DNA of 64,000 nt from a virus. The stretch covers positions 17,766 through 81,765 of IMG/VR virus record IMGVR_UViG_3300042308_001371; one strand, 5' to 3'. Positions 1 to 63,999 of this stretch are shown here, piece after piece. The position numbers and the translations under genes were made by a program. How positions within the stretch are numbered: position 1 is the stretch's first letter; each line of letters begins with the position of its first letter. The notes under the pieces were generated by a model that saw nothing but the letters and a program-made list of their open reading frames with translations, had not been told where the DNA came from and did no database searches.

Positions 1-1
1 A

Positions 2-736: not shown

Positions 737-738
737 TT

Positions 739-3700
739 ATGGCAAATACATTACTAAGAATAGGCTATATATCTGGTTCTGGTGGAGGAGGGGGAATCTC
801 TCAATACCCAGATCTTGCTAGTTTTCCTCCGACTGGATCTGTTAACGTCTTATATTTTGCTATTGATACTGCAAAGTTATATGCTTGGGATGGAGCTACT
901 TATGTAGAAGCATCTCCTTCTTTAGTAACTTCTGTAAATACTCAAGTTGGAGACGTAGTCTTAGATAAGAGCGATGTAGGTTTAGGAAATGTTGATAATA
1001 CAAGCGATGCCGACAAACCTATAAGTGATGATACTCAGGCAGCATTAGACGCTTTAGACGACAGAATTATTCCTATTGAAGATCGCGCCGAAGTTTTAAC
1101 AGTTTACGCTTACGAAAATAATACACAAGTTTATGCAGACGGACAACCGGGTATAAAAGACCCTTCTGCGTTAATTAGAGATGGTTGGTATTTTAAAAAT
1201 TCAATAGCTGGACAAAAGATAAACTGGTATTATTTTGATGGTACAAGCCAAGGTAGTATAACTTTAGGCGATTTTAAATCAGCCTATGCTGTAATGACTT
1301 TTGATGCAGTGTCTGGAGCAGCGTCTCCAATTATTGCAATTTATACATTTCCTACTGGAGCTGGGGACGTAATCCCCGGCTTTGCTCATTCAAGAATTGT
1401 TTACGACGGACCAATGACTCCGACTCCAGTGGTTGGAAAACAATATTTAGTATATGTCGGAGAAAACCCCTCTGTTAATCCAGAGCTTCCCAGAATTAAT
1501 CTATCTTTAATTCCCGGCTTATCAATTGGAGACAAACTTCCAACTGAACAAATCTTAACTATTTCATTTGGTTCTTCTTCAGGAGTCGCGGTAAATCAAA
1601 TTCAATACATGGTTGAAACTTTGGGATTATTCTCAGATCCCGTTAAGCATGAAATGGATTTAAGAATTAGGGTTGCTTCTGAGGATGCATTAGATCTTAA
1701 AGTTGCTAAAGCTGGCGACACGATGTCCGGACTTTTAGATATCACGGTTACAGGGGCTGCTGCTCTTGAAGCTAATGATATTGTTATTGGTAACCCATGG
1801 GGCGCAGGGTACTCTGTAATCACAGGAAAAGATGGTTCGACTGATGCTCTGTATATACAGTCGGCAGATCAATTAGGTACATTTGCTGGAAATTCTTCTA
1901 AACCAGTAACCGTTGGTTCAGGTTATACGCAAGGTGCAAATTCTGGAGCTGTTGAGGTTCTTTCAGCTCCGGCAGCAGTAAGCGGGGCTTCTGGTTCTGT
2001 TTATATTCATTCGGGAGATACCGTCGGTGCTACTGGGTTTACAACTGTAAAATCTGGTAATTCATCGTCAAGTAGTACAGGTACTGCTGTTTTAAGATCA
2101 GGTGATGCTGCGGTAAGCTCAGGTAACACACAAGTTAGATCTGGAAATTCTGTTGCAAATTCAGGTGTAACATCTCTTCTCTCTGGTCAATCTTCTGGTG
2201 GGAGTTCTGGTCAAGTTCAAGTTCAGTCGGGCGCTGCTGCAGTAGCTTCTGGAAATATCTTAATTTCTTCTGGTTCTGCAGCTACGCGAGGATTGGTTCA
2301 AATTGATGGTTCTAAGCTAAATATGCTTACTTCTATTGATATGAACTCTAGTAAGATTACTGAATTACTTGATCCTACTGATAATCAAGATGCTGCAACA
2401 AAAAAATATGTTGACGACAAAGATGCATTAAAACAATCTTTAATAGATAAAAATCAGGCGAATGGATATGTTGGATTGAATGGTTCAACAAAAATCGATT
2501 CAATATATTTACCTAGTTATGTTGATGATGTATTAGAATTTGCAAGTCTTTCAGTTTTTCCTTTGGTTGGAGAAACTGGGATTATTTATTTGGCATTAGA
2601 TACAAATCTTTGTTATAGATGGGCTGGTTCTGTATATGTAGAAATTTCTGCTGCTCCTGTTATTTCAGTAAATACTAAAGTTGGTGCAGTTGTATTAGAT
2701 AAAACCGACATTGGCTTGGATCAAGTTGATAATACTTCAGATGCTGATAAACAAATATCAGATGCAACTCAGTTGGCTTTGGATGATAAAGTAAGTAAAA
2801 CTGGCGATACGATGACTGGCCAGCTTACGATGCAAGATGATTCAATTCTAATAGATGCTTCTATTTCAGAAGGAATGCCAAATACTCTATTACTTGAATC
2901 AGGAACAATCCAGTCAACTGTTATAAATGGAGATATAACTTCAACATCTATTTTGTATCCTTATCAACACTCAATACAAACTACTGACAGTGTATCCACT
3001 TCAAATACATCGTTAACTATTAGTGCAGAACATAATGCTCCTATCCTTGAGGTTTCAATTGTAAATGCTGAAACTGAAATGGATTCTACGGTTAATATAC
3101 TTAATTCTGGATTATATGTTACTAACATAGATTATACTAATAATAATGAACTTTTAGGTAATTTTATTGCTGGATCTTTCATCATTGAAACCATTCTAGC
3201 TGATTCAAGTAACAGTACTATTGTTGGTGATCCAACTGGTATAACTCTTTCTAGCTTTGATGGAGATGTCACAACCGAACCGTTAATGCCTGCGACTGAT
3301 TTTCATGTAACAGTTAAAAAGTACGTAGATGATGCTGACGATTTAAAAGAAAATTTAGCCAATAAATCAATCGACGGAACATTAGCTTCTAATTCAGACA
3401 CGTTATACCCTTCTCAAAAAGCAGTTAAAACTTACGTAGACTCTGTAAGTGGTGGAGGCACTGCGAATTTTGAAGCCTCTACATATTACCACGAATTACA
3501 TGTTAATTACGATTTCACTGGAGCTACCTCAGATGGCTCTCCATATAGACCATTTAAAACCACTCAAGCAGCAGTAAACGCTGCTCAATTACAAAATATT
3601 GGTGGTAATACTGCCATTTTAATTCATTTAAAAAATGATATTAATATTGTGGAAAATATTGCAATAACTAATGCCGTATCTAACTTATACATTATGCCAG

Positions 3701-6246: not shown

Positions 6247-6279
6247 TGTAATTTCGGCTATTTAAATACGGCATAGAAA

Positions 6280-6292
6280 GCACCCTTATAAT
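6280..6292 (+). promoter_or_regulatory. Candidate late promoter motif GCACCCTTATAAT
   Basis: Same motif at 12033 and 19346, each upstream of a virion gene block. Confidence 0.55.
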
Positions 6293-6303
6293 ACAGAGGT
6301 AAC

Positions 6304-7149
6304 ATGGCACAGGTAAAGCCTAATCCAAATTCATTCTATGATCCGGGCTTAATTGTCAAGGAAATCCATGACTTACATGCTAAGTCTATTAGGGTATCCG
6401 ATACTAGATCCGTAGTAGATAAGTTTTATACTCACTTTAGGGTTTTATACACTGAGCTAAATTTACCATCAGAAGTTTCTTATTTTAGAGGAACAAGATC
6501 TCATACAACTATAATAGGTTGTGTTGATGATGTTGAAGCCTCCCTCCAAAATTCATATATTAAAATATACTCCTGTCCAGATAATACTCCATTCCATATT
6601 TGGTTTAATGTAGATAATCTAGGAGTTCCCCCAACAATTCCCGGATCTACTGCAATTGAGATTCCTATAAATAAAAATGAAGGATCTTCTGTTATATCTA
6701 TGGCTGTGGGTTTAATTATAAACTCTTTGTTTAAATCTGATTTTTCAGTATCTAGATCTAATTCGGTTGTTGAAATTACAGCGGTTGGAATGGGTGAGAT
6801 ACTCGATTCATCAGACGAAGGAACTGGGTTTGCGTTAGTAAACTCTAGAGGAGAGCAGGAATTAGCTAATTATATTCAAATAGGATATCAGGATCTGCAT
6901 CCTGTATATAAAGGACAAGTTTTAAAAAATTACATCTTTAATGTATTTTCTGGACAATTTGAAATTAAAGAAGAGCTTCCAACAACTATTCAAGAAGTGG
7001 TCTGGGATGAAATTGTAACAACATTTCCACTTGAAAATCAAGAGCTGTATTCTTATAAATATAACTCTAATTTAGTTCAAGAAATGCTAGTAACTTATAT
7101 TGATGCTACAAAAAAAGCAATAGTATCTATTCAAAAGACAAGGTATTAA
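6304..7149 (+). CDS. Putative virion protein
   Basis: 281 aa; GAGG RBS; its FHIWFNV segment resembles FAVWFNI in 13692..18560. Confidence 0.55.
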   Translation: MAQVKPNPNSFYDPGLIVKEIHDLHAKSIRVSDTRSVVDKFYTHFRVLYTELNLPSEVSYFRGTRSHTTIIGCVDDVEASLQNSYIKIYSCPDNTPFHIWFNVDNLGVPPTIPGSTAIEIPINKNEGSSVISMAVGLIINSLFKSDFSVSRSNSVVEITAVGMGEILDSSDEGTGFALVNSRGEQELANYIQIGYQDLHPVYKGQVLKNYIFNVFSGQFEIKEELPTTIQEVVWDEIVTTFPLENQELYSYKYNSNLVQEMLVTYIDATKKAIVSIQKTRY

Positions 7150-7335
7150 ATGTCTTGGAAATTTGATCCATTTATTATGAGTCTAATCTGGGTAGCTCCA
7201 ATCTCTATTGTAGATAATGTAGGGGATATCGACATGGGTACAGTAGATAGCGATATTATAATTGACATGGGTTCTAGAGAGGATAGTCCTTCTGGCATTG
7301 ATCAGGGATTAAGAGTATACGATGGCGATTTTTAA
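7150..7335 (+). CDS. Small acidic hypothetical virion protein
   Basis: 61 aa; abuts the previous gene and overlaps the next; IDMG repeats. Confidence 0.5.
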   Translation: MSWKFDPFIMSLIWVAPISIVDNVGDIDMGTVDSDIIIDMGSREDSPSGIDQGLRVYDGDF

Positions 7336-7699
7336 AGCTCCCAAATTAACTAGTGCTCAAAGAAACAACCTCGTTCTAGAGGTTAGTGAACTTGTATATG
7401 ATTTAGATCAAAAAGCATTCTACGGTGGAGACGGCTCTGTATCTGGTGGCTTTTTAGTTGGTGCTACCTCCGGCTTTATTGTTGAAACAATTGAATTAAC
7501 GCAACAAAATATAAATGATAAGTTTGTGACGCTTGCGCAAACACCCTTAATTCCTAGTGCTGTAATTGTTACTCCAGAGGGTGGAATATCTCAAGTTAAT
7601 GGAGTTGATTATAGTATTATCGGTAGTAAATTATCATGGGAAAATTTAGGATTAGATGATTTTTTAGATAGTACAGATGTACTGATAATTCAGTACTGA
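7322..7699 (+). CDS. Fibre-associated protein
   Basis: N-terminal GELVYD..K.FY.GDG-like fibre motif; C-terminal Q.NGVDYSI...L.W domain similar to the C-terminus of 7730..10234. Confidence 0.55.
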   Translation: MAIFKAPKLTSAQRNNLVLEVSELVYDLDQKAFYGGDGSVSGGFLVGATSGFIVETIELTQQNINDKFVTLAQTPLIPSAVIVTPEGGISQVNGVDYSIIGSKLSWENLGLDDFLDSTDVLIIQY

Positions 7700-7729
7700 C
7701 CCCCGCCATAACAAAAACAAGGAGAAATC

Positions 7730-10234
7730 ATGGCCCAGCAAATTAAAAAGAAGTTTATCCAAAACGACGCAGTCGATGGACAAAAACTCAAACTTCAAAA
7801 AGACCAATCAATTCGTGGTCAGAAACAGGACGGATCAGAAGTCGAATTACTAAAAATGGATGGTAGCGATAAGCTAGTATCTGGTGGACAAGAGCTTGCT
7901 TTTAAAGAAGTTGTAGACGCTCAAGTTTCAGATCTTCAAGATAAACTTGATTCTGAAGAAGCTTCTCGTATTTCTGGAGATGAAACGCTTCAGTCAAATT
8001 TGAATGTTGAACAGTCTGCTAGAGAACAAGCTGATCAAGGTCTTCAATCTTCAATTAGTTCTGAAGAGGCTCGTGCTGAAAGTGAAGAATCTCGTATTGA
8101 ATCTAAATTAGATAGCATGATTGTTTCTGAAGAGTCTGCTCGTGAAAGTGCGGATCAAGGCTTGCAGTCTCAAATTAACACAGAAAAAGGTCGCGTTGAC
8201 GCTATCCTTTTAGCTTCTGATGCTGATAAAGATTCATTTGCTGAAATCGTTCAATTGATTAACTCTGTTGATACTGAGAATGATTCTGCTTTTGGTTCTT
8301 ACGTTCTTTCAAATAATGCAGCTTTAGCTTCTGAAGTTTCTTCTCGTGAGCAAGGTGATCAAGATCTTCAGTCTAACATTGATGCCGAAGAGTCTCGTGC
8401 TAGTGACGAAGAATCTCGTATTGAGTCTAAGTTTGACGGTATGCTCGCTTCTGAAGAAGCTGCTCGTATTGCTGGTGACTCTGCTGAGCAAACTCGGGCT
8501 ATGGGTATTGAATCTAGCTTACAATCTCAGATTACTCAAGAAGTTTCTGATAGACAATCTGCTATTTCTAGCGAAGAATCTGCTCGTCAGTCTGCAGACT
8601 CTAGCTTACAGTCTAGCTTAAATTCTGAAATTTCTGATCGCCAAGCTGCGGTTTCTGCTGAAGCTTCTGCTCGTCAAGCTGCAGATTCAGATCTTCAATC
8701 TCAACATGATGATCTCGATGGTTATGCTCAAGATGTTCGCTCTGACTTGGATGATCTAGATGGTTATGCTCAAGACATTCGTTCTGATTTAGATCAGGAA
8801 ATTGTTGATAGAGCTGCGGCGGTCTCTGCTGAAGCTTCTGCTAGACAATCTGCTGATTCTAGCTTACAATCTAGTCTGAGTTCAGAAGTTAGTCGTGCTC
8901 AATCTGCTGAGTCTACTGAGCAAGCTGCTCGTATTGCAGGAGATGCTTCTTTACAAAGCTCTTTAGATTCTGAAATTTCTTCTAGACAATCAGCTGATTC
9001 TCAACTTCAGTCTAATATTGATTCAGAACAAGCTGCTCGTATTGCTGGGGATTCTTCTACTTTACAATCTTCTAAAGATTATACAGATGGAAAAATCTCT
9101 CTTGTAATGAGTAATTTGGATACGGAAGCTCTAGATTCATTAGTTGAAATTGTTACAGCTTTCCAAAATGCCGACGGTGATTTGAACGATACAATTTCTA
9201 GTTTATCTTCTGCTGCTTCTTCTGCACTTGCTGCTGAGCAAGCTGCTAGAATTTCTGGAGATGAGTCACTTCAATCAAATCTTGATGCTGAATCTGATCG
9301 TGCTATGTCTAAAGAATCTGAATTAGAAGATTCTATTGATTCTGAACAGTCTAGAGCTATGGACGCTGAGAGTTTGATTCAATCGAATCTCGATGCTTAT
9401 TCTCTTCAGAATGACATTAATCTCAATTCTATCCATGAGCAAATGCAAATCAATGATGAGCGTGCTGGTGCAGCAGAAGAAGGTCTCCGAACCGAACTTG
9501 AAGCTGAAATTGAGCGCGCAATGGCTGCTGAGCAAGGTCTTGAAGACAACAAAATGAATCGCGGCGGTGATTCAGTAGAAGGTGAATACTTCTTTGATGA
9601 TGGTGAGGGTGTTGTCTCTTCTATTTTGGGAACTGGATTTAAGGTTGAACAAGATCTTGGATATAAAGTTCTTAAAACTGAAATTAAGTCAGATAGAATT
9701 AACTTTAGCTCTCAGAATGGTAGCTTAGTTGTTTCTGGTGATCAGATTGCTCTTTCTCACATTGTTCCAGAAGCATCAGGACTTCCTGAAGCTGGCTTTG
9801 ATGTATTTGTTGGTACTGACAACAATACTATGCGTATGGGACAATTTTATAACTATGAAGGCGTAACACAGCCTTATCTTCCTGTTGAAGGACATGAGTT
9901 TACTGTTAAAGCTTATGTTGATCAGCAAGATTCAGCATTGTCTGACAGAATTACAGCTCTTGAAGTTCAAACTGATGGTCCTTACTTTCAAAAACAAAAG
10001 TTTGTTATTGACGAAACTTCTGAGTTAAGTTCTATTGAGCTTTCTCATGAGTGTATGGAAAATTCACTTACTGTTTGTGTTGGTCGTTTGATGGTTCACA
10101 AAGACGAAGATTACTCTGTTTCAGTTGTAGACGGTAAATCCGTTCTGACATGGATGGGTGATTTTGCTCAAGGTGAATCTGAAGGTATCGAAGAAGGCGA
10201 TGTAATTTTTGTTACATTCGCTAGAGAAGTTTAA
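7730..10234 (+). CDS. Coiled-coil fibre-like virion protein (834 aa)
   Basis: Many SEExAR..ADxxLQSxL repeats; ALDSLVEIVTAF motif typical of phage fibres; AGGAG RBS. Confidence 0.7.
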   Translation: MAQQIKKKFIQNDAVDGQKLKLQKDQSIRGQKQDGSEVELLKMDGSDKLVSGGQELAFKEVVDAQVSDLQDKLDSEEASRISGDETLQSNLNVEQSAREQADQGLQSSISSEEARAESEESRIESKLDSMIVSEESARESADQGLQSQINTEKGRVDAILLASDADKDSFAEIVQLINSVDTENDSAFGSYVLSNNAALASEVSSREQGDQDLQSNIDAEESRASDEESRIESKFDGMLASEEAARIAGDSAEQTRAMGIESSLQSQITQEVSDRQSAISSEESARQSADSSLQSSLNSEISDRQAAVSAEASARQAADSDLQSQHDDLDGYAQDVRSDLDDLDGYAQDIRSDLDQEIVDRAAAVSAEASARQSADSSLQSSLSSEVSRAQSAESTEQAARIAGDASLQSSLDSEISSRQSADSQLQSNIDSEQAARIAGDSSTLQSSKDYTDGKISLVMSNLDTEALDSLVEIVTAFQNADGDLNDTISSLSSAASSALAAEQAARISGDESLQSNLDAESDRAMSKESELEDSIDSEQSRAMDAESLIQSNLDAYSLQNDINLNSIHEQMQINDERAGAAEEGLRTELEAEIERAMAAEQGLEDNKMNRGGDSVEGEYFFDDGEGVVSSILGTGFKVEQDLGYKVLKTEIKSDRINFSSQNGSLVVSGDQIALSHIVPEASGLPEAGFDVFVGTDNNTMRMGQFYNYEGVTQPYLPVEGHEFTVKAYVDQQDSALSDRITALEVQTDGPYFQKQKFVIDETSELSSIELSHECMENSLTVCVGRLMVHKDEDYSVSVVDGKSVLTWMGDFAQGESEGIEEGDVIFVTFAREV
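8708..8791 (+). repeat. 42-bp imperfect in-frame tandem repeat (DDLDGYAQD[VI]RSDL x2)
   Basis: gatgatctcgatggttatgctcaagatgttcgctctgacttg followed by gatgatctagatggttatgctcaagacattcgttctgattta. Confidence 0.85.
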
Positions 10235-10246
10235 TATATTTTAATG

Positions 10247-10269
10247 GAGGGGAGAAATCCCCTCTTTTT
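10247..10269 (+). terminator. Rho-independent terminator
   Basis: GAGGGGA-GAAA-TCCCCTC then TTTTT. Confidence 0.85.
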
Positions 10270-10288
10270 ACTTTTTTAAGGAGACTAT

Positions 10289-11890
10289 ATGTCTACATTT
10301 TATGTGCGGAAAAACGGGTCAGGTACGCACACTGACATTCAAAGTGCTTTTGTTCAAGCAGTATCTGGTGACACAATTGATATCGAATCTGGAGTTTTTG
10401 AGGAGAATGTCGATTTTTATAAATCAGGAATTACTCTAAAAGGTGCTGGAAAAAATCTAACGGAAATTAAAGGCATACAAGAGGCAACCGTAACTAAAAC
10501 TACCTCATGGTTGCTTGGTGCAACATCTTTATCGTTTCCCGGTGGTACTTCTGGTTTTATTGTTGGAAGATTCCTATCAGGCGTTGGCTTGGCGACAAAC
10601 ACTAGAATTACGTCAGTTTCTCCTACGTCTATTACGCTTTCAGCAGCAGCTACTGTTGCTAAAACAAACCAAACTGTTTCTATGCCTTTGGTTCCTTCAA
10701 CTATCGTTGTTCGTGGTGCAAACCATGTAATTCAGGATTTAAAGATCACTGCCCCTCAAGCACTAGAATCAAGATGTCTTGCAGATAACGCGGCTATCTT
10801 TTTTAGAACCGCTGGTAACGGGGAAGCCCCTGCTACTGGGTATATTCTCCAAGATTGTATTATTGAAGCAAGAGGTGAATCAGCTATCGTGACCGATTAT
10901 AGTTCTTTCGTAGGAAGTGGGATTATTCGCAGAAACACAGTCCAAGGTCAAACCTTTGTTGGCGCATCTGCTGCTCAGGTTCCTTCTTTTGGAACAATGT
11001 CGAAGTCTGGTACAGTTTTATCAGCTAGAACTATTCGCTTTAGTGAAATGAGTGGTATTACTGCCCCTCATGCTGGTAACTCGCAAGGTAGTGAGATTAC
11101 CCCGGGTCTTCGTGTAGTTTCTATTAGCGGAGATGTGGTAACTGTTTCTGCTAACATTCCTGATGCGGTCAATACTGTAAGAGCTTTCTCTTTTGGTAAC
11201 GTACAGTTCAACTTTCCAAACGTAGCTAGACAATTAGTAGTTATCCAAAGTGTTAACATGGCTACTCAGTTTTTGAGCAATACTGTAAAGGGAGCGACCG
11301 GAAGCGGATTCTCTTACAATACGGCAGCAACTATTGATACAGCCAATGCAACTATCACGAGCAATACTTTCAATGGTAGCTTTAAGTATGGTTATGCTCT
11401 TAGAGCCAGAGGAGCAGGGTCAAGCGTTAATAATAACGTAAACTACTCCTTGACTAGTAATCCTAACGCAGGGTATCTTATTGGTCCTACAGGAGCGCAA
11501 ACTTCTGGCATGACTATTGGAACAAATAGCTCAATTACTAAAGGTATTGTTGCTAGTACTCAAGCGTCGTCTGGAGAAAAAATCGTATCTGAAATGAGTA
11601 AGGAATTGGTATCTGCCCTTTCTAGCGTTTCCTCAGATGCCGATTTTTCAAGCATCTCTAGTTGGTCAATGGTAAGTTATGTTTTTAAACATAGCGAATC
11701 AAGCAAGAGACTTGTTTCTTCATTTAAATCTTTTGATGGGTTTAAATCAACGGCACTCAAATCGGGTATGGCTTCTGGTCAAAAATTTGAACTACACAAG
11801 ATCATTGTGAAAAATGCTTCAGGTGCTCTTAAGGTTGTGAAAAGATCGGACATTCCAGATGCTTCTAGTTTTGATATTACTTTAAAGTAA
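10289..11890 (+). CDS. Pectin-lyase-like beta-helix protein (tailspike/depolymerase-like)
   Basis: N-terminal DIQSA....SGDTI.I.SGVF.E...K..ITLKGAG pattern typical of parallel beta-helix proteins. Confidence 0.6.
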   Translation: MSTFYVRKNGSGTHTDIQSAFVQAVSGDTIDIESGVFEENVDFYKSGITLKGAGKNLTEIKGIQEATVTKTTSWLLGATSLSFPGGTSGFIVGRFLSGVGLATNTRITSVSPTSITLSAAATVAKTNQTVSMPLVPSTIVVRGANHVIQDLKITAPQALESRCLADNAAIFFRTAGNGEAPATGYILQDCIIEARGESAIVTDYSSFVGSGIIRRNTVQGQTFVGASAAQVPSFGTMSKSGTVLSARTIRFSEMSGITAPHAGNSQGSEITPGLRVVSISGDVVTVSANIPDAVNTVRAFSFGNVQFNFPNVARQLVVIQSVNMATQFLSNTVKGATGSGFSYNTAATIDTANATITSNTFNGSFKYGYALRARGAGSSVNNNVNYSLTSNPNAGYLIGPTGAQTSGMTIGTNSSITKGIVASTQASSGEKIVSEMSKELVSALSSVSSDADFSSISSWSMVSYVFKHSESSKRLVSSFKSFDGFKSTALKSGMASGQKFELHKIIVKNASGALKVVKRSDIPDASSFDITLK

Positions 11891-11951
11891 TCAAGGCAAG
11901 ATATTGAGCTAAGAATATGGAATCCTAATTTTAGTATCTTACCTAATGAAG

Positions 11952-11974
11952 GGGGTGGTTTATCCACCCCTTTT
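11952..11974 (+). terminator. Rho-independent terminator
   Basis: GGGGTGG-TTTAT-CCACCCC then TTTT. Confidence 0.8.
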
Positions 11975-12032
11975 ATATTCTATAACTCCTTAATTTTATT
12001 GTGTTAAAGTCTAAATTACATTCTTTGGTTAT

Positions 12033-12046
12033 AACACCCTTATAAT
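12033..12046 (+). promoter_or_regulatory. Candidate late promoter motif AACACCCTTATAAT
   Basis: Repeated motif; lies after the terminator and before the AAGGAG RBS of 12072. Confidence 0.55.
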
Positions 12047-12071
12047 ATGTAGCAATAAGGAGCTGTAAACT

Positions 12072-12470
12072 ATGGAAAAGAAAGCAAAAGCTAAGTCTGC
12101 AATGCTAAAAGAACTTTCAAAGGAGATGTCTGACGATATGTACTCTCCAATGAAGGATATGATTGGCAAAAAAGGTCTTAAGAAAGTATCCGTTATGTCT
12201 GATTCTCCTGAAGGTCTTAAAAAAGGTTTATCAATGGCTGAAAAGCTTATGAAACTTAAAAAAGATCAATCTCCTTCAGAAGATGAAGAAACAGAATCCG
12301 AAGAACAATCTTGCTCCAGTTGTAAAGGAGAGGGTTGTGACATGTGTGAAGAGAAAGAAGAAAGCCCTTCAGACGAATCTGAGGAAAGTGCTTCTCCCGA
12401 ACTTCCAGAAATGTCTCCTTCAGAAATGGAAGCTGTCTACGAGATGCTTAAGAAAAAACTCGGAAAATAA
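12072..12470 (+). CDS. Hypothetical charged protein with acidic tract and CxxCxxxxCxxC
   Basis: 132 aa; strong RBS. Confidence 0.6.
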   Translation: MEKKAKAKSAMLKELSKEMSDDMYSPMKDMIGKKGLKKVSVMSDSPEGLKKGLSMAEKLMKLKKDQSPSEDEETESEEQSCSSCKGEGCDMCEEKEESPSDESEESASPELPEMSPSEMEAVYEMLKKKLGK

Positions 12471-12482
12471 TTAAGGTTTAAA

Positions 12483-13688
12483 ATGAGTAGTATTTTAAAG
12501 ACTGCAGATTTGATACGAAGTATCAAGCGTAGAGCTATGATACCTACAAGTCAAGAAACATTTACAGACACTGACTTATTAGAAATGGCTACAGAAGAGA
12601 TTAATCTAGGTCTAGTTCCTTTAATTCAAAGAATGCATGAAGAACATTTAGTGTATTATATCGATATTAAACTTGAAATAGGTAAAAAAAGATATCCCAT
12701 TCCCTCTAGAGCACATGGTAATAAATTAAGAGATGTTGCTTTAATTGATGAAAACGAAAATGTTTTTGAAATGCACAGGTATTCATTAAATGAATTATCT
12801 GATTTTTCCAATACTACGGCATATATTAATGCTCGTGGTTTCTACTTAGAAAATAATGATGTTATTCTAACAAATTTTCAAACAAATATAGGTCAGAATT
12901 TACGTATGTATTTTTACATGCGTCCAAATTGTTTAATATTAGAATCTAATGGTGCAGTAATTGAAACTATAACCGATCTGGTAGAAGTAGATAAAATTAC
13001 CCCTGTAACTAAAAGTATAACTTCTCTTACTCCAAGTGGATCTAAAGCTATTATCACATGTCCAGATCATGGAATAAGTAATGGAAAAAAAGTATCCTTG
13101 TCTGGAATTACTCTATCCGACCTAAGTATTTTTAGTGGTATTTATGAAATTTATGTTATTAATTCAAATAGTTTTAGTATTACATCTTCTATTTCTTTAT
13201 CTGGAACTGGCGGTAGTGCTTCATTGATGCTTGATGTAAAAAGTATTAAATTTAAAATATTACCAAGTCATATGGTAGCAGATGACTTATTTGATTTTGT
13301 TCAACATGTATCTCCAAATAAAATTCTATATTATGATATTATAAAAAATGATGTAAGTCCATCGCTAAATACTATGAGTTTTCCTGCTTCTAGTGTTCCA
13401 GATATTCAAATAGGCGATTATACTACTGCTGCGGAAGAGACTATTGTACCCAATATCCCATCAGAATTACATCCAATATTAGCGCAGAGGGTTGCTATTG
13501 CTTGCTTAGAAGCCATGGGTGATGAAAATAACAAGCAATCAGCCGAAAGAAAACTAGCGTCTATGGAAAAAGATGCAGGAACTTTCTTAGATAATAGGGT
13601 TGAAGGTGCGCAGATAAAAATTAAATCAAGACACTCTCCTTTAGTAAATACATTAAATACGCTAGGAAGACGAAATAGAAGGTGGTAA
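12483..13688 (+). CDS. Head-tail adaptor (tail tubular A-like) with an inserted beta domain
   Basis: Position before the nozzle-like gene; N-terminal DLIRSIKRRA..P and C-terminal IP.ELHP.L helical pattern of podoviral adaptors. Confidence 0.55.
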   Translation: MSSILKTADLIRSIKRRAMIPTSQETFTDTDLLEMATEEINLGLVPLIQRMHEEHLVYYIDIKLEIGKKRYPIPSRAHGNKLRDVALIDENENVFEMHRYSLNELSDFSNTTAYINARGFYLENNDVILTNFQTNIGQNLRMYFYMRPNCLILESNGAVIETITDLVEVDKITPVTKSITSLTPSGSKAIITCPDHGISNGKKVSLSGITLSDLSIFSGIYEIYVINSNSFSITSSISLSGTGGSASLMLDVKSIKFKILPSHMVADDLFDFVQHVSPNKILYYDIIKNDVSPSLNTMSFPASSVPDIQIGDYTTAAEETIVPNIPSELHPILAQRVAIACLEAMGDENNKQSAERKLASMEKDAGTFLDNRVEGAQIKIKSRHSPLVNTLNTLGRRNRRW

Positions 13689-13691
13689 TCA

Positions 13692-16600
13692 GTGCCTATA
13701 TTAACTATAAACCGCGGGCTAGTAACCTCTCCAAATGAGTTGGCAAGGCCTGATGGTGCCGCTGATGTATTGGATAATTGTGTAATCGATTCCGACAATG
13801 TTGTAGAACCTAGAAGAGGCTTTGCGGAGTTTGGAAATGTTACAGATGATGACTCTGTTGTTAAACAATTATTAACATATAAAGGCAGAGTATTACGACA
13901 TTTTGCAAATAAATTAAGTTTTGACTCAACTGGTAATGGATCTTTTTTAAATTTCTCTGGAACTTATAACGAACTGGTATCTAGGCTTAGAATTAGATAT
14001 TTTGAACTTAATTCAAATTTATACTTTACTACTAGTGAAGGGATCAAGAAGATTTCTGCAAAATCTGCAGATGATTTTTCTAATTCTGCGGAATATATAA
14101 CAAAGGCTGGTGGAGTTAAAGCCACTGGTTTAGAGTTAAACTTAGTACCATCCGCTTCAGGATTTCTTCCTGCACAATCTAAGGTAGCTTATAAAGTACT
14201 ATGGGCTAGAAAAGATGTAAACGGTAACATTATACGCGGAGTTCCTAGCTCACGACATGTGATAACAAATACGTCTCAAGATCTAAATGTAGGTGAGAGT
14301 TTTACAGCTACTATATTAGATGCTGGAGCTGGGATACATAAATCCTTCGATGCAACCTCTAGTATTTCTGATGGACCTCAAATTACTTTTTTAGCTGCAG
14401 CAGTAAATATTACAGATAATACAATAGCATTGACCGCGGGTGCAACAGATCATAATTACCAAACAAATGATTTAATAAAATTATTACAAAATGGAGTTAA
14501 CCCATTACCTGTAGGTCTTGCGGTAGGTAACTATTATGTGATTAGAGTAGACACTAATAAAATTAAACTAAAAACAACTACAACTGGATCTGAAGTAGAT
14601 ATAACAAGTGTAGCAGCTGCAGGAACTAGTGGCATTGTAGAAAATACAACTACTGGTAAAACTATAACTATAGCATCGCATGGCTATACTGATGGTACTA
14701 AAGTTAGATTATTTGGTATTTTAGCTAATGAATTAGATAAAACACAAACTTACTATATTAGAAATAAAACTACTAATACTTTTCAATTATCATTAGAACC
14801 TGCTAGTGTTATTATTACCCTAACTAAAAAAGTTGGAACTTCTGAGATTTACAGTGGGATATCTAATAATGATTTTTTCTTATTTGATAGCTTAACTAAT
14901 AAGTTTGCAGTGTGGTTTAATATTTCTGGAACTGATCCATCTCCTACTAGTAGTTTATTACTAGGAAGACAATTAATAGAAATCCCTATATATAATATAA
15001 CACTAAAAAATAAAATAAATTATGCATCAAAAATAGCTGAGATATTATTCTCTATATCGGATGTAGAAATAGAAGTGGCTTCTGAAGTAGTAACAATTAC
15101 CAACAGGGATGGTGGGGATGTATTGGATGCTAGTCAGGGCAGTTTAGATATTACTTATGGTACAATATCTACTGTATATGACGGTCAAACATCTATTGGA
15201 ATTCCTTCTAATACTCAAGTCATTACTACCGTACCAAGTGGGATAAATAGTAAAGACTTCTTTTATGAGGTTTATAGAACTGCGATAACAACTGTTCCTA
15301 CTGGGCTGACTCTTAATGATATAGATCCGGGAGAAGAATTTCAAAAAATATATGAATCTCCTGTAAGTTTAACAGATGTTATTCCATCAGAAGTTACTTT
15401 TGATGATTATATTCCTGAAACTTTTAGAGAAGGTGGATTATATCTATATGTAAATCCTGTAACAGGAGAGAGTGCTCTTCAAGCTAATGAAGCTCCTCCA
15501 ATAGCTCATGATGTTGCTATTTTTAAAGGATCTGCTTTTTATGCTAATACTAAGGAAGTTCATAGACTTCAATTTAGCATGCTTTCAGTATTCCCCTATA
15601 ATTCAGGATCATCTAAGTTGCATGTGGGAAATTCTACAAAAATGAGTACATATACATTTATAGGTCAGAATGAAATAATTCAGTTTACAGCAAAGAAGAA
15701 ATCAGAAACAGTGGGAGGATCTTATTTTGACATATATAATGCCCAAAATAAAATTAAATACAGGACATGGTTTGATAAAGGATCTATAGTTTTTAATTTT
15801 GATCAAACTGCTATAAATAGTACTACTGAGGAAATAACTCTATCTAATCATGGATTTGCTACTAATGATCTTGTGACGATAGATGGAACAACTTTACCGG
15901 GTGGATTATTAAAAAAATCATATTATGCTATAAGAGTAAGCTCTAACACTATTAAATTATCCGATTCTATAAACGGATCTGCAATAAACTTAGATTCATC
16001 TTCTGGTTCTGCATCCATTTCCCACATATCTAAGGCTCCTAGTGTAGACAATTGTCTACTACTAAAAATACCTCTATTACTTCCCATTTATGAAGATACA
16101 GTGGAGGGGTCCGTAGACGCATTTGCTGATGCATTTTTTGACATAAATGATTTTAATATAAACGATAATATCTATCACTTATTTGATTCATTTTATGATA
16201 TTAATGGATCTACTGAAACTATAAACATAAAAAATCATTCATTTTTTAATAATGATCAAGTAACTTTTTCTCAAAATTGTCCTGACGGAATCCTCATAGA
16301 TACTCCCTATTATGTTATAAACAAAACTAATAATAGCTTTGGAATATCGACCTCTATAGGTGGACCTTCAGTAGACATAACCCCCAAGTCTGGAGCAGGA
16401 AAAGTAACCTTTGTAGCACCTAGTTCTATTGTAAAATTAGTTTACACTGATAATGGTGACGTATCTCCAGTAGTTCAATCATCTCCTGTTACAGGATGGT
16501 CAGACCCTCTAGTATTACAACAAGGTGATGGAGAAGATGCTTCTTTAAATCAAGTATTGCTATCTGGGTTATCTTCCCAATCCTTATCTATAGAAGACAC

Positions 16601-27767: not shown

Positions 27768-28694
27768 TTAGTATACCCACTTAGGCTTACCACTCAGCAC
27801 TACCATGGAGTCTAGCGTGAATTTCTTTGGTTTAATTGCTAAACTAGGAGCTTCAAACTGAGCGTTTAGCAACGCTTCATCTAATACGCTATGCAAGCCT
27901 CTAGCTCCTAATCCCTTCTCAATAGCCTTCTGAGCTATGATATTAATAGCACTATCCTGTACTACAAGCTCAATACCTTCGCTCAAAAACCACTCTTTAA
28001 ATGAGTTTAAGATAGATCCCTTGGAGTCACGTAGGATCTTCCTGTAATCATCAAATTTAAGCTCCTGAAGCTGCGTGATAACTGGGAATCTTCCCAAGAA
28101 TTCTGGGATCATTCCAAAATCCATAAGAGTAGGAACTGAAGCAGACTCTAGACCCACAAAAGCTCCAGAGCATATAAACATAATATCTTTAGTATTCATT
28201 TTTTTATCGTACTCCCCATTCTGAGAATATCTAGAAATATATGGAACATCGCTACCTTCTAGTAGTTTTAAAAGAGATTGCTGTACGCCAAGTCCGTTAA
28301 CATCAGCTCCTCCGTCTTGACTAGTCTTCTTCTTAATTTTATCTATTTCATCAATGTAGATAATTGATTTAGAAGCTTTCTTTTCATCTCCCTCACAAAT
28401 ACCTAGCAGATCGGTAATAAGTTCTTCAACACTCCTACCCTGATATCCAGAAGAAGTAAACTGAGTTGCATCGCTTGTCAAGAAACTTACTCCAAGAATT
28501 CTAGATAAGATAGAAACTAGGTAAGTCTTACCACATCCAGTAGGTCCAATTAGAAGCACGTTAGATTTTTTTATTGTACTACCATTCATTCTTTTAAAAT
28601 GATTATATGCAGCAACTGATAAAGATCTTTTAGTCTTTTCATGACCAATCACGTACTCATCTAATTCTTTTTTAATTTGCTCTGGGGTTTTCAT
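27768..28694 (-). CDS. clpX: ClpX-like AAA+ unfoldase (no ZBD, no IGF loop)
   Basis: LDEYVIG, KSNVLLIGPTGCGKT, IYIDEIDKI, GVQQSLLKLLEG, IPEFLGRFP, GARGL. Confidence 0.9.
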   Translation of the reverse strand: MKTPEQIKKELDEYVIGHEKTKRSLSVAAYNHFKRMNGSTIKKSNVLLIGPTGCGKTYLVSILSRILGVSFLTSDATQFTSSGYQGRSVEELITDLLGICEGDEKKASKSIIYIDEIDKIKKKTSQDGGADVNGLGVQQSLLKLLEGSDVPYISRYSQNGEYDKKMNTKDIMFICSGAFVGLESASVPTLMDFGMIPEFLGRFPVITQLQELKFDDYRKILRDSKGSILNSFKEWFLSEGIELVVQDSAINIIAQKAIEKGLGARGLHSVLDEALLNAQFEAPSLAIKPKKFTLDSMVVLSGKPKWVY

Positions 28695-52666: not shown

Positions 52667-53854
52667 TTAAAAAGGTATATCAGAGTTTTCAAATGCTTTA
52701 GCTTTAGCTTTAGCTTCCCTCTCTTCTTTAGCCGTTTTATATGCATCTTTTGCAAGCCTAGCTTCTCTTGTCTTTTCTACTAATTGTTTATTCTCTAGTA
52801 CATAAGCCTTCATGTTAACATCTGTCGAAAATTGAGCAACCTCTCTTAAGGGCAGCAAAAAAGCATACAAATTTTCTACAGGGCAGTCTAAAAGAAATGC
52901 CACTAGATTTTTAGCATTATTGTCAGTTAGTGTAGTTGCTTTAAGTCTAATTACTAGCTCCTCAGAAACATTAGAGCAAACTGTAGCGATGATATCGGCT
53001 CTAGGTGCTTCAATATCTTCTAGAGTAACTGGGTTTTTAAAATTCTTAATAAAACTAGTTCTACTCTTTTCATAATTATCTAGAATATCTTTTGCATCAA
53101 CAATTTTTACTTGGTTTTCCTTCCACGAACTATAGGCAATCATACTAGTAGTTCCTACAATGCCCATACCTGCTTCTCTAAAAAGATTCTCTGGCATACT
53201 GGTTAGTTCCAATTTTTGAAGTCTATCCCATGATCTTCGTGAAGGTTTAACAAAATCTAAGGTAACAGCTTTAAGATCAGTTTCTTCTAGAAGTTTTGTC
53301 TGTTGACGTAAGAAATCACTTACTGGACTATTAGTATATCGACCAGTCATATATTCATGAAATTCTTCATGAGTAGGATCTAGATTAATATGAACAAAAC
53401 GATCTGCAAAAGCCTTATCTGCAAAGTCAAGAACAGAATAGTCATCGGTGGCCGGATTCATTGCCATGATAATGGCAGAATCTTTCGGTAACGTATAATC
53501 ATGTAAGGTTCCTTCTAGAGCCAATTGAAAGATAGCTTGGAGTAGTTCTTTTGATGCTCTGTTAAGCTCATCAAAGAAAAGAATTGACTTAGGATTTTTA
53601 GGTAACTTTTCAGGATGGACAAAGCTAACTGATAAAGCTTTACCAGAACTATCCCTATTAAATTCTGGAAGACCTAGCAAGTCTCCATTGTCGGACATTT
53701 GACCAAGAAAGAATGGGTGAAATGTATAACCATTTTCCTTAGCGTACTGAGCTACTACTGAAGACTTCCCAATCCCATGCTTTCCGATAATATTAGGCAC
53801 AAGCCCAGACTCAATAATGAATGGAAGTGATTGTTTAAGTTGTGTGATATTCAT
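52667..53854 (-). CDS. MoxR-like AAA+ ATPase
   Basis: GKHGIGKS, GDLLGLP, FFDELNRA, AMNP, D.AF.DRF, PS.RSW; adjacent to the vWA gene. Confidence 0.85.
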   Translation of the reverse strand: MNITQLKQSLPFIIESGLVPNIIGKHGIGKSSVVAQYAKENGYTFHPFFLGQMSDNGDLLGLPEFNRDSSGKALSVSFVHPEKLPKNPKSILFFDELNRASKELLQAIFQLALEGTLHDYTLPKDSAIIMAMNPATDDYSVLDFADKAFADRFVHINLDPTHEEFHEYMTGRYTNSPVSDFLRQQTKLLEETDLKAVTLDFVKPSRRSWDRLQKLELTSMPENLFREAGMGIVGTTSMIAYSSWKENQVKIVDAKDILDNYEKSRTSFIKNFKNPVTLEDIEAPRADIIATVCSNVSEELVIRLKATTLTDNNAKNLVAFLLDCPVENLYAFLLPLREVAQFSTDVNMKAYVLENKQLVEKTREARLAKDAYKTAKEEREAKAKAKAFENSDIPF

Positions 53855-60056: not shown

Positions 60057-60786
60057 ATGCGATAAGCTTCAAAGCTTCGTTATAGATACTAGTATTTAAA
60101 AGGATATTAGCGTCAACGCCTTTTATCGCTCTTACTTTACTAGTCTTATTCTTATCCTCATCCTGTACATAAAAGCCCGTTCTCATCAAATTTTCTTGAA
60201 TGATATTAAATTGGCTAAATAAATCTTCTCTTTTATCTTCCCACCGCTTCGCTTCAAAAAGGGGGATAAGTTTATCAGAATATTTATCCCCCATTCTCAA
60301 TTTTAGGCATGAATCTTGCAAGGCTTTAATTTCGTCACTAGTCAAAATTTTATTGCTCATTGCATTAATTCCATCGATTGCCACAGTCCTATAATCCATC
60401 ATCTCCTCAATTGAATCGTCAAGCTTCAAAAGCCCGTTTTGGGTATGCCGTACTTTAATTTTAGGGATTAGATCACTCCCCACTATCAAACCATTGGAAC
60501 AAACCATTCGAAAAAAGCCTAGTCGGAAAGTCAACGCGCTTGATCCTTCGTGAGAATTAATAGCCAATAGTTGAAGTTTTCCTTGACTATTTGAATAGCC
60601 AACATCAAAGCGCAAAACATGTTTTTGGAAGCCTAGGCGTTTTTCCTTATCCTTTCTAATTTTAGACTCCACAACATCGGACAATTTAAATCCCTTATTT
60701 TCAAGATTTTTCACTAGACTTTCACTTGAGATAAACCCGAATTTATTAGAGCCAATGTGAGACGTTTGAGTTAAGCAAATTGACAT
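60055..60786 (-). CDS. DUF932-family protein
   Basis: GFQKH..RF, NSHEGSS......G.FR.VCSNGL, FN.IQEN. Confidence 0.85.
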   Translation of the reverse strand: MSICLTQTSHIGSNKFGFISSESLVKNLENKGFKLSDVVESKIRKDKEKRLGFQKHVLRFDVGYSNSQGKLQLLAINSHEGSSALTFRLGFFRMVCSNGLIVGSDLIPKIKVRHTQNGLLKLDDSIEEMMDYRTVAIDGINAMSNKILTSDEIKALQDSCLKLRMGDKYSDKLIPLFEAKRWEDKREDLFSQFNIIQENLMRTGFYVQDEDKNKTSKVRAIKGVDANILLNTSIYNEALKLIA

Positions 60787-61631: not shown

Positions 61632-61667
61632 ATGTTGCCCCTCTTTGTTGTTTGTTTCCTTAATGAG

Positions 61668-61696
61668 ATGGTACAGGAAAAGAAATAATGCGTCAA
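61668..61696 (-). promoter_or_regulatory. sigma70 promoter
   Basis: TTGACG-17-TACCAT. Confidence 0.65.
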
Positions 61697-61932
61697 TAAT
61701 AAAGTGACATCTCTTAACTTTTATATAAACCCCCTTACATTATGAGGATAAGCCCTCGCACTGGCATTGAATCGGACCGTGAAAAAAAGCATGCCTTGGA
61801 CGTTTTAAAGCGTTTAAGCCATGTCAGCGCATGCCCCTGAAATAGCATGACTTGAAAACGTGGGATTATGTTTCAAGCGAAACGCCGACAAAACAGTGAC
61901 AATTTAGCCATGGTTGATGATACGAGACTATA

Positions 61933-62649
61933 TGGCACAGACTTTGCAGGGAATGAATTGAGTACCTGTAAAGGCATAAAATAAGGTGTCACATAAAGGC
62001 AGCTTAGTTTTCTTGCGCCCGCATATTAATTCCCTGTAAGTATCTGAAAATTGGAAAGGGGACCAAGCTCAAGCCTAGTCCCCTCGGGTGATATGTATAA
62101 GCTCGCCACGGGCATTTTGAAGACTAGACAAAGTCGCCCATAGCTCACTCGATAAGGTGTATTAAATCACTGCTCAAAGGCTTTTAAAACAGTCTCAGAA
62201 CGTGATAATAAGTTTACTAAGGTTAATGTAATCACTAGCATAATATAAGTTTTCATCTAATCCCCTCTTAAAACAATATTCTCACACTATGCATCATAAT
62301 GCAATAGCCAAACGAAATAAATATTTGTCAAGCGGTTACTCATAAATTCGTAACTGGTAAGGCCTCAGTATTGCACTAGCAAAGCATGTGCCAATTGGAA
62401 GATCCCCCTAAAGAAACATGGCATGAGTTTTGCTTATGCAAAGCCAACATCCAGCGTATATTCCAGCAAAAGAAAATGTTTTGGCATGATCTTTGCGTTA
62501 TATACAGCTTAGTTCTTTTTTGCTACAATGAGGGTAAGACAAGCGCAACAGGGCGAGCTTGGAAAATAAGCCCAACAGTAAACAAGTTTAGGGAAGGAGC
62601 GAGCTTAAAAAAATAGGCACAGCTCTTGCATCTGCAAGCCCCATGCCAA
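61933..62649. promoter_or_regulatory. Cluster 1 of sigma54-type -24/-12 sites
   Basis: TGGCACAGACTTTGCA 61933+, AGGCCTCAGTATTGCA 62360+, TTGGCACATGCTTTGCT 62378-62394-, TGGCATGAGTTTTGCT 62419+, TTGGCATGATCTTTGCG 62481+, TAGGCACAGCTCTTGCA 62614+, TTGGCATGGGGCTTGCA 62633-62649-. Confidence 0.75.
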
Positions 62650-62652
62650 GCC

Positions 62653-62673
62653 AAAAAAACTCCCCGAAGGGAG
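62653..62673 (-). terminator. Rho-independent terminator
   Basis: On -: CTCCC-TTCG-GGGAG-TTTTTTT. Confidence 0.8.
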
Positions 62674-62690
62674 CTTAGCGATTTGGAGAG

Positions 62691-62993
62691 TTATAAGATG
62701 TTGACTGTGGTGGCTGCTGCTTTAAGCATGTTGGGCTTTAGAATGCAATCTGTTAACATTTGAAGTTGACCATTATCCTCAACGCTTAGACCGAAGTGGT
62801 TGAAAAGCATGTCATTGATTAGATCAGTCTCATTGCCTCTGTATCCAAGCTCGTCAAGCTCATAGTCAAGGTCAGAGAACAATGCCACGAATTCTTTTTG
62901 TTGTTTCTTGTTAAGCATTCTAAGTATCTGTAATAAGTAAATCATATAGCTCCCTTTGTTGTGTTGTCGTGATTCATTATAGCAGAATGACAA
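62691..62993 (-). CDS. Early hypothetical protein (likely start 62945)
   Basis: AAGGGAG RBS before MIYLL; promoter TTGACA-16-TATAAT at 62976-63003. Confidence 0.6.
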   Translation of the reverse strand: MSFCYNESRQHNKGSYMIYLLQILRMLNKKQQKEFVALFSDLDYELDELGYRGNETDLINDMLFNHFGLSVEDNGQLQMLTDCILKPNMLKAAATTVNIL

Positions 62994-63005
62994 TCGGTGT
63001 CAACT

Positions 63006-63254
63006 TTATTCCTCCCACAACGCTCCGATATCGTCCGAGAATATACCTTGCTGCACTTCTACCCATCGCACATTGGTCACGTTATTCGCCCCAAAATGAT
63101 ACCTTAAAAGAGCCGTAGCGAATTGTTCAAGCATTTCAGGGGATAAGGCTTTTACAGTTGCATCAACGTCAAAAGATCGTCTCATTGATTTAAAAGTCCT
63201 TTTTCCTTTGAGCTTGATACTAGCATGTGCAGATATTCTAAAAATTGGTTTCAT
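63006..63254 (-). CDS. Early hypothetical protein
   Basis: AAGGGAG RBS; promoter TTGACG-16-TACAAT at 63285-63312. Confidence 0.6.
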   Translation of the reverse strand: MKPIFRISAHASIKLKGKRTFKSMRRSFDVDATVKALSPEMLEQFATALLRYHFGANNVTNVRWVEVQQGIFSDDIGALWEE

Positions 63255-63308
63255 TGTTTGCTCCCTTGTTGTTTGTCATGCTTCATTGTAGCACATTGAC
63301 GATTAGCG

Positions 63309-63683
63309 TCAAGCCCTTTCGTTAACTATCTCCTCGAATCTTTTCCAAGCATTGTCTGCAAGTTCCGTGCCATCATAGAGTGCCTTCATTAATTGGCAAT
63401 TGTCATCATGCCCAAGCCTGAACCAAGTATGGCATAGTTCATGCAGGACAACATGTGTCAGTGCTTCGCTTGCAACATCCTCGCCAATTGCTATGATGTT
63501 TTTCCCAAGCCAAGCCAAGCCCCCTTCACTTGTTATTATCTTGACTTCTACCCTAGGCGCATTTATGTAGATCCTACGGGCTTTATAAATGATATCCATT
63601 ACTTGTCTACGCTTGTCAAAGTACCCTTCTGATTTTACTCGCCAGTCCTGATGAACCACTTCGTTTTTTCTAAGCTTATTCAT
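63309..63683 (-). CDS. Zincin-like metallopeptidase (HELCH...H...C.LM)
   Basis: HEXXHxxxxxH plus a Met-turn-like LM; promoter TTGACA-17-TAAGAT at 63705-63733. Confidence 0.7.
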   Translation of the reverse strand: MNKLRKNEVVHQDWRVKSEGYFDKRRQVMDIIYKARRIYINAPRVEVKIITSEGGLAWLGKNIIAIGEDVASEALTHVVLHELCHTWFRLGHDDNCQLMKALYDGTELADNAWKRFEEIVNERA

Positions 63684-63837
63684 TTGATGCCCCTTGATAT
63701 CCTCATCTTAGCATTTTTGATTCAAAGTGTCAAATTATGCTGCAAGTCCCTGTCATCATTGACTTTGCTGCGAATCGTTACACCTATGGTATGATGAGGG
63801 TAAGAAACAAACAAGGGGAAAACAATGGGAATATAAT

Positions 63838-63945
63838 AGCAATAATCATGCCAAGGACTAGGCATGTCTCTTGCATCTGCAAGGCCTGTGCCAAGCCAGT
63901 GCATGCAAGGCCGGTGCCAAGTGGCCCATGCAAGAACGATGCCAA
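63838..63945. promoter_or_regulatory. Cluster 2: five packed sigma54-type sites
   Basis: On -: TTGGCATGATTATTGCT 63838-54, TTGGCACAGGCCTTGCA 63878-94, TTGGCACCGGCCTTGCA 63904-20, TTGGCATCGTTCTTGCA 63929-45. On +: TAGGCATGTCTCTTGCA 63859-75. Confidence 0.8.
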
Positions 63946-63972: not shown

Positions 63973-63999
63973 GGGGGGGGGGGGGGGGGGTGTGGGGGG
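63973..63999 (+). repeat. G18 homopolymer plus G6
   Basis: Directly visible at the window end. Confidence 0.8.

Follow-up and report, generated by a model that had tools for sequence, protein, structure and literature searches.

A Dense Array of Sigma-54-Type Elements in an Uncultured Lake-Water Phage: Possible Docking Sites for Host RNA Polymerase

The IMG/VR virus record IMGVR_UViG_3300042308_001371 (81,765 nt) represents a tailed, uncultured phage of ~81.6 kb whose DNA comes from lake-water metagenomes. The window considered here is the 64,000-nt stretch formed by bases 17766-81765 of that record, and positions are those of the window unless genome positions are specified. At 61933-63945 it contains a dense array of elements of the sigma-54 promoter type, TGGCA-N6-TTGC, with some 12 strong and three weak copies in both orientations (eight minus, seven plus). 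The array region is largely non-coding and conserved, and stands at the head of a leftward block of small early-type genes. To its left are small minus-strand ORFans; each of those starting at 63683, 63254, 62945, and 61631 is preceded by a strong sigma-70-type promoter and a ribosome-binding site of its own, and inspection of these nearby genes agrees on this point with an initial annotation made from the sequence without database searches. All eight minus-strand sites are upstream of minus-strand genes, and no gene lies ahead of any of the seven plus-strand sites; the same annotation's remark that most sites do not precede a gene therefore holds for the plus-strand set and fails for the other. 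The large terminase gene is 1-6 kb downstream of the array, here and in 16 other loci discussed below.

Of 11 exact TGGCA-N6-TTGC matches genome-wide (81.6 kb), 10 fall in the 2.0 kb of the array (61933+, 62379-, 62419+, 62482+, 62634-, 63358-, 63839-, 63879-, 63905-, and 63930-; the only one outside is at 4722-). Four further sites have one mismatch (62615+ and 63860+, both AGGCA; 63430+, ATGC; 63472-, TGGCG), and one has two (62360+). The 15 sites listed in the initial annotation are all present, with coordinates correct to within one base. TGGCA-N6-TTGCW was found 10 times in the window, compared to 0.35 on average, and never more than 2, in dinucleotide shuffles. With a weight matrix trained only on sites from other phages, there are 16 matches of at least 15 bits in the genome, 13 of them in the 2.05 kb of the array; first-order Markov genomes, used as the background, have ~3 matches of at least 12 bits. 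The whole-genome matrix scan proposed in the initial annotation was thus positive, and its impression that there is no similar cluster elsewhere was borne out. Two isolated sigma-54-like sites are found inside genes: one at 60304-60319 (+), antisense within a DUF932 gene (19.6 bits), and one at 4722-4737 (-), in the gene for an 1835-aa tail protein (18.5 bits).

The GG and GC doublets are spaced exactly 10 nt apart, in 11 exact and four near matches to TGGCA-N6-TTGC, and the order of the -24 and -12 boxes is never swapped. Bases outside the search pattern are also constrained: sites in the window read TGGCA-Y-R...Y-TTGC-W, and in 152 further sites from other phages T is found at -26 in 90% and at -27 in 62%, C or T at -21 in 90%, G or A at -20 in 86%, a purine at -19, and A or T at -11 in 91%, at positions left free in the search. 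The sites fit the extended sigma-54 consensus (T at -26, a pyrimidine at -27 and -21, a purine at -20 and -19, and A or T at -11) reportedly compiled by Barrios and colleagues in 1999. Judging by sequence, their identity as sigma-54-type elements, proposed in the initial annotation, is well supported.

Spacers differ from copy to copy within the genome, and differ again between relatives while the boxes do not. In the more distant relative (contig L038, 71% identity over the region), five sites are retained; their boxes are identical at 45 of 45 positions, but their spacers at only 19 of 30 (Fisher 1e-5). In a closer relative (95% identity), the corresponding figures are 45 of 45 and 28 of 30; both changes are in spacers, a contrast that is not significant. 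By these comparisons, purifying selection is limited to the -24 and -12 boxes, as predicted for a protein-binding site of the sigma-54 type. The cluster is found again in related phages, with the boxes of the retained sites unchanged in both L038 and the 95% relative L004, and the initial impression of conserved flanks around freely varying middle bases was correct. The plus-strand site at 61933, including its spacer, is identical in L038, where it falls within a conserved non-coding block.

Six of the 15 sites are arranged as three head-to-head pairs (62360/62379, 62615/62634, and 63860/63879), each with a 2-bp gap between the -12 boxes. The minus-strand half of the last pair (63878-63893) also begins a tandem run with 63904-63919 and 63929-63944, in measured steps of 26 and 25 bp, as the initial annotation had it. 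By geometry, the partner site in a pair spans positions -11 to +8 of each site, and in a 25-26-bp tandem the next site spans approximately 0 to +15.

The head-to-head pair is not peculiar to this phage. As a 32-nt pattern it is found in at least 60 IMG/VR contigs, from unrelated phages with GC contents of 33-60%; a more demanding 34-nt version is satisfied by 48 of these, with 43 distinct sequences among them. This version was searched for in 596 Gb of bacterial and archaeal sequence and occurs there at two places, one being a 7,682-nt contig that shares its length and match position with a viral contig in the set (L021) and is the same contig. The pair is thus nearly absent from cells; any fold-enrichment over cellular genomes is approximate only. 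Control patterns (back-to-back half-sites, and a scrambled palindrome of equal composition) gave no matches in IMG/VR. Among the matches listed, 60 of the 68 distinct pairs have a gap of 2 nt. Many pair-bearing contigs carry entire arrays, with for example four pairs in L018, and ~19 of 55 arrays are within 1.5 kb of a contig end; these could be true termini, or assembly breaks at repeats. Unpaired sites in the other phages show no orientation preference (48 vs. 39 of 112 toward ORF starts, by crude open reading frame (ORF) calls in these loci).

Several possible regularities in the layout were considered and rejected. Unpaired sites are not generally aimed at a pair (34 toward, 31 away). Site spacing does not show significant helical phasing at 10.4-10.5 bp (p ~0.2); a 13-bp period gave p 0.002, but is not claimed because several periods had been tried first. 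Two of the other contigs have additional repeats. L044, a 57-kb contig in the IMG/VR direct-terminal-repeat class, has six exact 26-bp tandem repeats at 12128-12273, each with one sigma-54-like site, reaching the contig end. L018 (59% GC), beside its four pairs, has at 620-900 three ~20-nt units starting GTTGGTTAAAGC and four palindromes CCACAAGCCGTTGTGG, and this interval looks like a control hub for several proteins.

Phage-encoded partners for the array were sought at several levels. No PF00158 activator was found in this genome or in 50 other array-bearing records, and no GAFTGA motif in any frame of this genome, which extends to the whole genome the initial annotation's failure to see such an activator in the window. 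No sigma-54 DNA-binding domain was detected in 27 array-bearing records, and no Pfam family is common to the 138 ORFs flanking arrays. Since no shared phage-encoded binder is visible, a universal host factor is favored. The phage does have two AAA+ ATPases, one ClpX-like (27768-28694) and one MoxR-like AAA_5 protein beside a VWA/DUF2201 protein (52667-53854); the GAFTGA loop is missing from both, and the ClpX-like protein matches PF00158 only at the Walker A level (E 0.011).

Features of the array and its immediate surroundings are collected in Table 1.

Table 1. Sigma-54-type sites and neighboring features near the end of the window (positions in the window; L004 and L038 are relatives with 95 and 71% identity; bits are weight-matrix scores).
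Feature	Position	Strand	Remarks
Single sigma-54-type site TGGCACAGACTTTGCA	61933..61948	+	Exact; points right, against local genes
29-aa hydrophobic ORF	62167..62256	-	Strong ribosome-binding site; 111 nt downstream of predicted start for 62379-; poorly conserved in L038
Head-to-head pair	62360..62393	.	Weak plus half AGGCC..TTGCA (62360+), strong minus half 62378-62393; -12 boxes 2 bp apart; kept in 95% relative, lost in L038 via 47-nt indel
Sigma-54-type site TGGCATGAGTTTTGCT	62419..62434	+	Exact; L038 changes only at degenerate positions (-21, spacer, -11)
Sigma-54-type site TGGCATGATCTTTGCG	62482..62497	+	Exact TGGCA-N6-TTGC; same boxes, altered spacer in L038
Head-to-head pair	62615..62648	.	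62615+ AGGCA half, minus half 62633-62648; center TTGCA-TC-TGCAA; same boxes, altered spacers in L004 and L038
Terminator-like hairpin and T-run	62657..62676	-	Ends 84-aa gene 62691-62945; conserved in L038; hairpin 62676-62657 is 8 bp from pair 62615-62648
124-aa gene, HExxH motif	63309..63683	-	Weak SprT-like match (PF10263, E 0.0017, 18.6 bits; cut-off 25.6); other DNA in its place in 95% relatives
Sigma-54-type site TGGCACGGAACTTGCA	63357..63372	-	In 3' end of 124-aa gene; 23.2 bits; ~46 bp upstream of next sigma-70 -35 box; gone with the gene in 95% relatives
Two weak one-mismatch sites	63430..63487	.	63430+ ATGC, 15.4 bits; 63472- TGGCG, 14.5 bits; inside 124-aa gene; could be chance matches
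Sigma-70-type promoter of 124-aa gene	63705..63733	-	TTGACA-17-TAAGAT, TG-extended
Sigma-54-type site TGGCATGATTATTGCT	63838..63853	-	Only terminal-cluster site with free downstream DNA; points to sigma-70 promoter at 63733 and gene 63683-63309
Head-to-head pair	63860..63893	.	63860+ AGGCA half, minus half 63878-63893; center TTGCA-TC-TGCAA; conserved with spacer changes in L004; two such pairs there in L038
Two minus-strand sites, 63904-63919 and 63929-63944	63904..63944	-	24.1 and 23.7 bits
Poly-G tract	63973..63990	+	13-18 G by copy or relative; 16 G in L004, 13 G in L038; assembly break point

The first gene downstream of the sigma-54-like cluster encodes a small HExxH SprT-like protein both here and in Pakpunaviruses (L067, 5190-5669; PV469300, 81333-81806), although the SprT-like match is weak in this phage and clear in the Pakpunavirus. 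A SprT-like gene as general partner of the arrays was considered and rejected: only 2 of the 138 neighboring ORFs are of this type, and the 124-aa protein has no pairwise similarity to Pakpunavirus ORF143. Farther left, a non-coding stretch of ~400 nt (61640-62040), which holds the 61933+ site and a sigma-70 promoter (61696-61668), is conserved in L038 well above the 71% average; it matches no Rfam family. Downstream of the 29-aa ORF, a hairpin at 62060-62095 keeps its stem in L038 by compensatory changes (GGGGAC/GTCCCC vs. AACAGC/GCTGTT), and is probably a minus-strand terminator. Rfam and transfer RNA scans of the array region gave one sub-threshold small RNA match and no transfer RNA.

The initial annotation placed the array at the early, first-entering end of the genome. 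This part of it was not sustained. The first 100 nt of the record repeat the stretch ending 40 nt before its last base, beside the poly-G tract, so that its ends share at least 100 nt around this tract, and two contigs from other samples (L004 and L005, 95% identity) cross the junction without a break. The assembly thus closes on itself, and no physical terminus is demonstrated at the array. A ~70-nt block following the poly-G tract (genome positions 127-200) is conserved in relatives; tract and block together (63973-63990; genome positions 113-200) are better conserved than nearby coding DNA in both the 95 and 71% relatives, and may represent a terminus, a signal for packaging, or an element prone to form G-quadruplexes.

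The genome encodes a large terminase subunit, portal, head protein, internal-virion and tail-fiber proteins, family A DNA polymerase, a DnaB-like helicase, and ribonucleotide reductase; no RNA polymerase gene was detected in it. Genes run rightward from ~2.9 to 44.6 kb (genome positions) and leftward in the remainder. Cultured relatives are remote: the DNA polymerase has 43% identity to that of a Flavobacterium phage, and the large terminase subunit 29% to that of its nearest match, a Silvanigrella phage, and 24% to those of T5-like phages. No close relatives in the phage collection were found with the last 6 kb by megablast, and there were no matches by distant blastn of L018 or megablast of L016.

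Among bacterial sigma factors, only sigma-54 keeps RNA polymerase silently parked on DNA, and its polymerase binds DNA of this kind as a stable, silent closed complex. The reading tentatively favored here, at somewhat less than even odds, is that the sites are docking sites for the host sigma-54 RNA polymerase and act by being occupied, as a sink, a barrier, or a landmark, rather than as ordinary promoters. Host holoenzyme would dock on the array and remain closed and silent. With neighboring sites overlapping as they do, most copies would not be usable at the same time, and a bound neighbor would obstruct loading of the DNA downstream; it is from this overlap that we infer a role for occupancy. 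It is favored also by the combination of genes having their own sigma-70 promoters, 7 of 15 sites having no gene, the presence of sites in both orientations, the lack of an activator, the lack of an orientation preference, and the near-absence of the pair from cells. As a sink, the array would keep sigma-54 bound to phage DNA, either as holoenzyme or free of core; alternatively, it might provide a protein barrier or landmark in terminal or control DNA.

A more specific version, which is a good deal more doubtful, is that unrelated virulent phages have converged on the host sigma-54 polymerase as a DNA-bound protein, with the pairs and 26-bp tandems as activation-resistant traps. Each bound sigma-54 would block the DNA-loading region of its neighbor, so that complexes would persist even with active host activators. 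Such complexes might drain sigma-54 from host regulons, or might tag or protect the genome end during entry, replication, or packaging.

Several considerations weigh against an occupancy function. We infer sigma-54 binding, the silence of the complexes, and a benefit to the phage, and sigma-54 is presumed to be present in the host. The position of all eight minus-strand sites, upstream of minus-strand genes, is that of real promoters, and sigma-54-type promoters of phage YuA are reported to be active with host factors only (PMC10914365). A pure decoy would presumably profit more from well-separated sites than from overlapping ones, and the strict 2-bp gap points to a defined complex of some kind. 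The crude ORF calls behind the orientation test, and the approximate nature of the enrichment over cells, also belong here.

The chief alternative is that the sites function as true sigma-54 promoters dependent on an activator, with host enhancer-binding proteins firing them either from solution or via unrecognized enhancers. The pair would then be a compact two-way promoter with starts ~19 bp apart and diverging transcripts; a tandem set of early promoters, heading the early block, would be formed by the four sites that point left (63839-63944), and antisense or non-coding RNAs would come from those that point right. The close consensus match and the placement of the minus-strand sites suit this idea, as does the computed geometry of the pair, in which the two starts do not overlap; in several small phages the array is 300-400 nt upstream of the large-terminase operon, and YuA offers a precedent in its promoter-trap activity and reported dependence on host sigma-54 (PMC10914365; PMC5053324). 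It nonetheless seems unlikely on balance. Neither an activator gene nor a GAFTGA motif accompanies the array (nor PF00158 in the other records searched), no gene follows the plus-strand sites, the genes already have strong sigma-70 promoters, and each site blocks the start region of its neighbor. In addition, the pair is nearly absent from cellular genomes, where divergent operons are common, and unpaired sites have no preferred orientation with respect to ORFs.

If instead some other protein, of phage or host, binds the motif, the array could be a set of origin iterons, packaging or terminus sites, or a partition-like element, and its resemblance to sigma-54 promoters coincidental. The short distance between array and large terminase gene (1-6 kb, with the gene downstream, here and in 16 other loci), the frequency of arrays near contig ends, and the presence of sites in mapped Pakpunavirus terminal repeats all lean in this direction, as do the further repeat families of L018 and the exact 26-bp repeats at the end of L044; the boxes themselves (T-G/T-GCA) amount to a direct repeat of 11-bp period, like the sites of tandem-binding regulators. 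But the same motif, with the polarity and degenerate positions of the sigma-54 consensus, is found in unrelated phages at 33-60% GC, whereas terminase and initiator sites usually differ by lineage. The boxes never swap, spacers vary within a single genome, no protein family is shared beside the arrays, and T5 has no site of this kind in either its terminal repeat or its injection-stop region. Such a binder would also need to account for unrelated phages having exactly the sigma-54 consensus in common. Iterons and terminase repeats would be lineage-specific, near-identical, and beside the gene for their binder; of their hallmarks, only proximity to terminase and to terminal repeats is seen here, and a different binding protein is improbable. 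Least credible, to the point of being negligible, is an origin by chance, as a compositional effect of a GC-richer stretch or a functionless simple repeat. The last 2 kb of the window does have 42.5% GC, compared to 28-40% in the other 2-kb bins, but far fewer matches are found in shuffled and Markov controls, spacers differ between copies, and it is the boxes and not the spacers that are conserved in the 71% relative.

A dense, phage-specific layout that is under selection and recurs in unrelated virulent phages, including the therapeutic Pakpunaviruses, would indicate a general and undescribed interaction between phages and their hosts; the evidence suggests that phages use the host sigma-54 enzyme in a way not previously described. 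Phage links to sigma-54 found in the literature are few: its use for late promoters by YuA, a sigma-54-like protein of Pectobacterium phage Q19, and the inhibitor P7 of phage Xp10. As the initial annotation surmised, literature searches found no described phage system like this one. More practically, the head-to-head pair may serve as a marker of non-integrated phage DNA in metagenomes. There is a possible bearing, as a lead only, on phage resistance in P. aeruginosa, a Pakpunavirus host that has RpoN, and in which rpoN mutations give resistance to phages with different receptors by an unexplained route (PMC6188897); an rpoN effect on phage in Salmonella has been ascribed to metabolism.

Bacterial sigma-54 promoters are reported to have the sequence TGGCAYR-N4-TTGCW, and the closed complex formed there by the holoenzyme to require an AAA+ activator (PMC3844500; PMC5053324). 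The array elements are the same bipartite element as in glnAp2, nifH, and pspA, with GG and GC 10 nt apart; unlike these, they number ~15 in 2 kb, in both orientations and overlapping, with strong sigma-70 promoters adjacent and neither enhancer nor activator found. Silent and intragenic sigma-54 binding is known from chromatin immunoprecipitation in E. coli and Salmonella, in which the holoenzyme sits on DNA without transcribing, but those are scattered single sites in host genes, where here there are dense arrays and pairs.

Repeat- or promoter-rich non-coding DNA is known at the first-entering end of phages with terminal repeats, in the T5 injection-stop region and the T7 early promoters A1-A3. 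The T7 promoters are of the sigma-70 type, well spaced, and in one direction, unlike the sigma-54-type array. The T5 analogy was discarded: there is no sigma-54-like site in T5 1-14000, which includes the terminal repeat, and the terminases have only 24% identity.

Among phages, the Pseudomonas phage YuA (Ceyssens et al. 2008, as cited in PMC5053324 and PMC10914365) is the only one reported to depend on host sigma-54 (PMC5053324), and its annotated -24/-12 promoters to be highly active in a promoter trap with host factors only (PMC10914365), so phage sigma-54 sites can fire without a phage activator. YuA is virulent and resembles the present phage in having no RNA polymerase of its own; the present phage may share its use of host sigma-54. 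In its genome (NC_010116), however, there are three single, co-oriented sites before late structural genes, none of which fits the strict consensus, and no pairs, arrays, or sites in non-coding terminal DNA; the array described here is clustered, bidirectional, and in an early-type block.

The nearest parallel is in the cultured Pseudomonas Pakpunaviruses, to which several of the IMG/VR pair matches belong; the term sigma54 was not found in the Pakpunavirus literature searched. In Adele (93.2 kb, PV469300), every TGGCA-N6-TTGC[AT] site is in either the 1165-bp direct terminal repeat (PMC12846349), with three per copy (1-1165; 92038-93202), or a single ~600-bp intergenic region at ~81 kb, with a solitary site and a head-to-head pair, immediately before the SprT-like gene. 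K8 has five sites in its experimentally mapped 1188-bp terminal repeat (KT736033, 1-1188; PMC4773840). The terminus of PAK_P5, a Nankokuvirus, has no such cluster, and there are only two sites, in one intergenic region. Pakpunaviruses differ from the present phage in being myoviruses of a host with 67% GC, in having fewer sites (three per repeat plus three), and in sharing no gene content with it; yet K8, Adele, and C2-10_Ab02 have the same motif and the same head-to-head pair, likewise confined to non-coding or terminal DNA.

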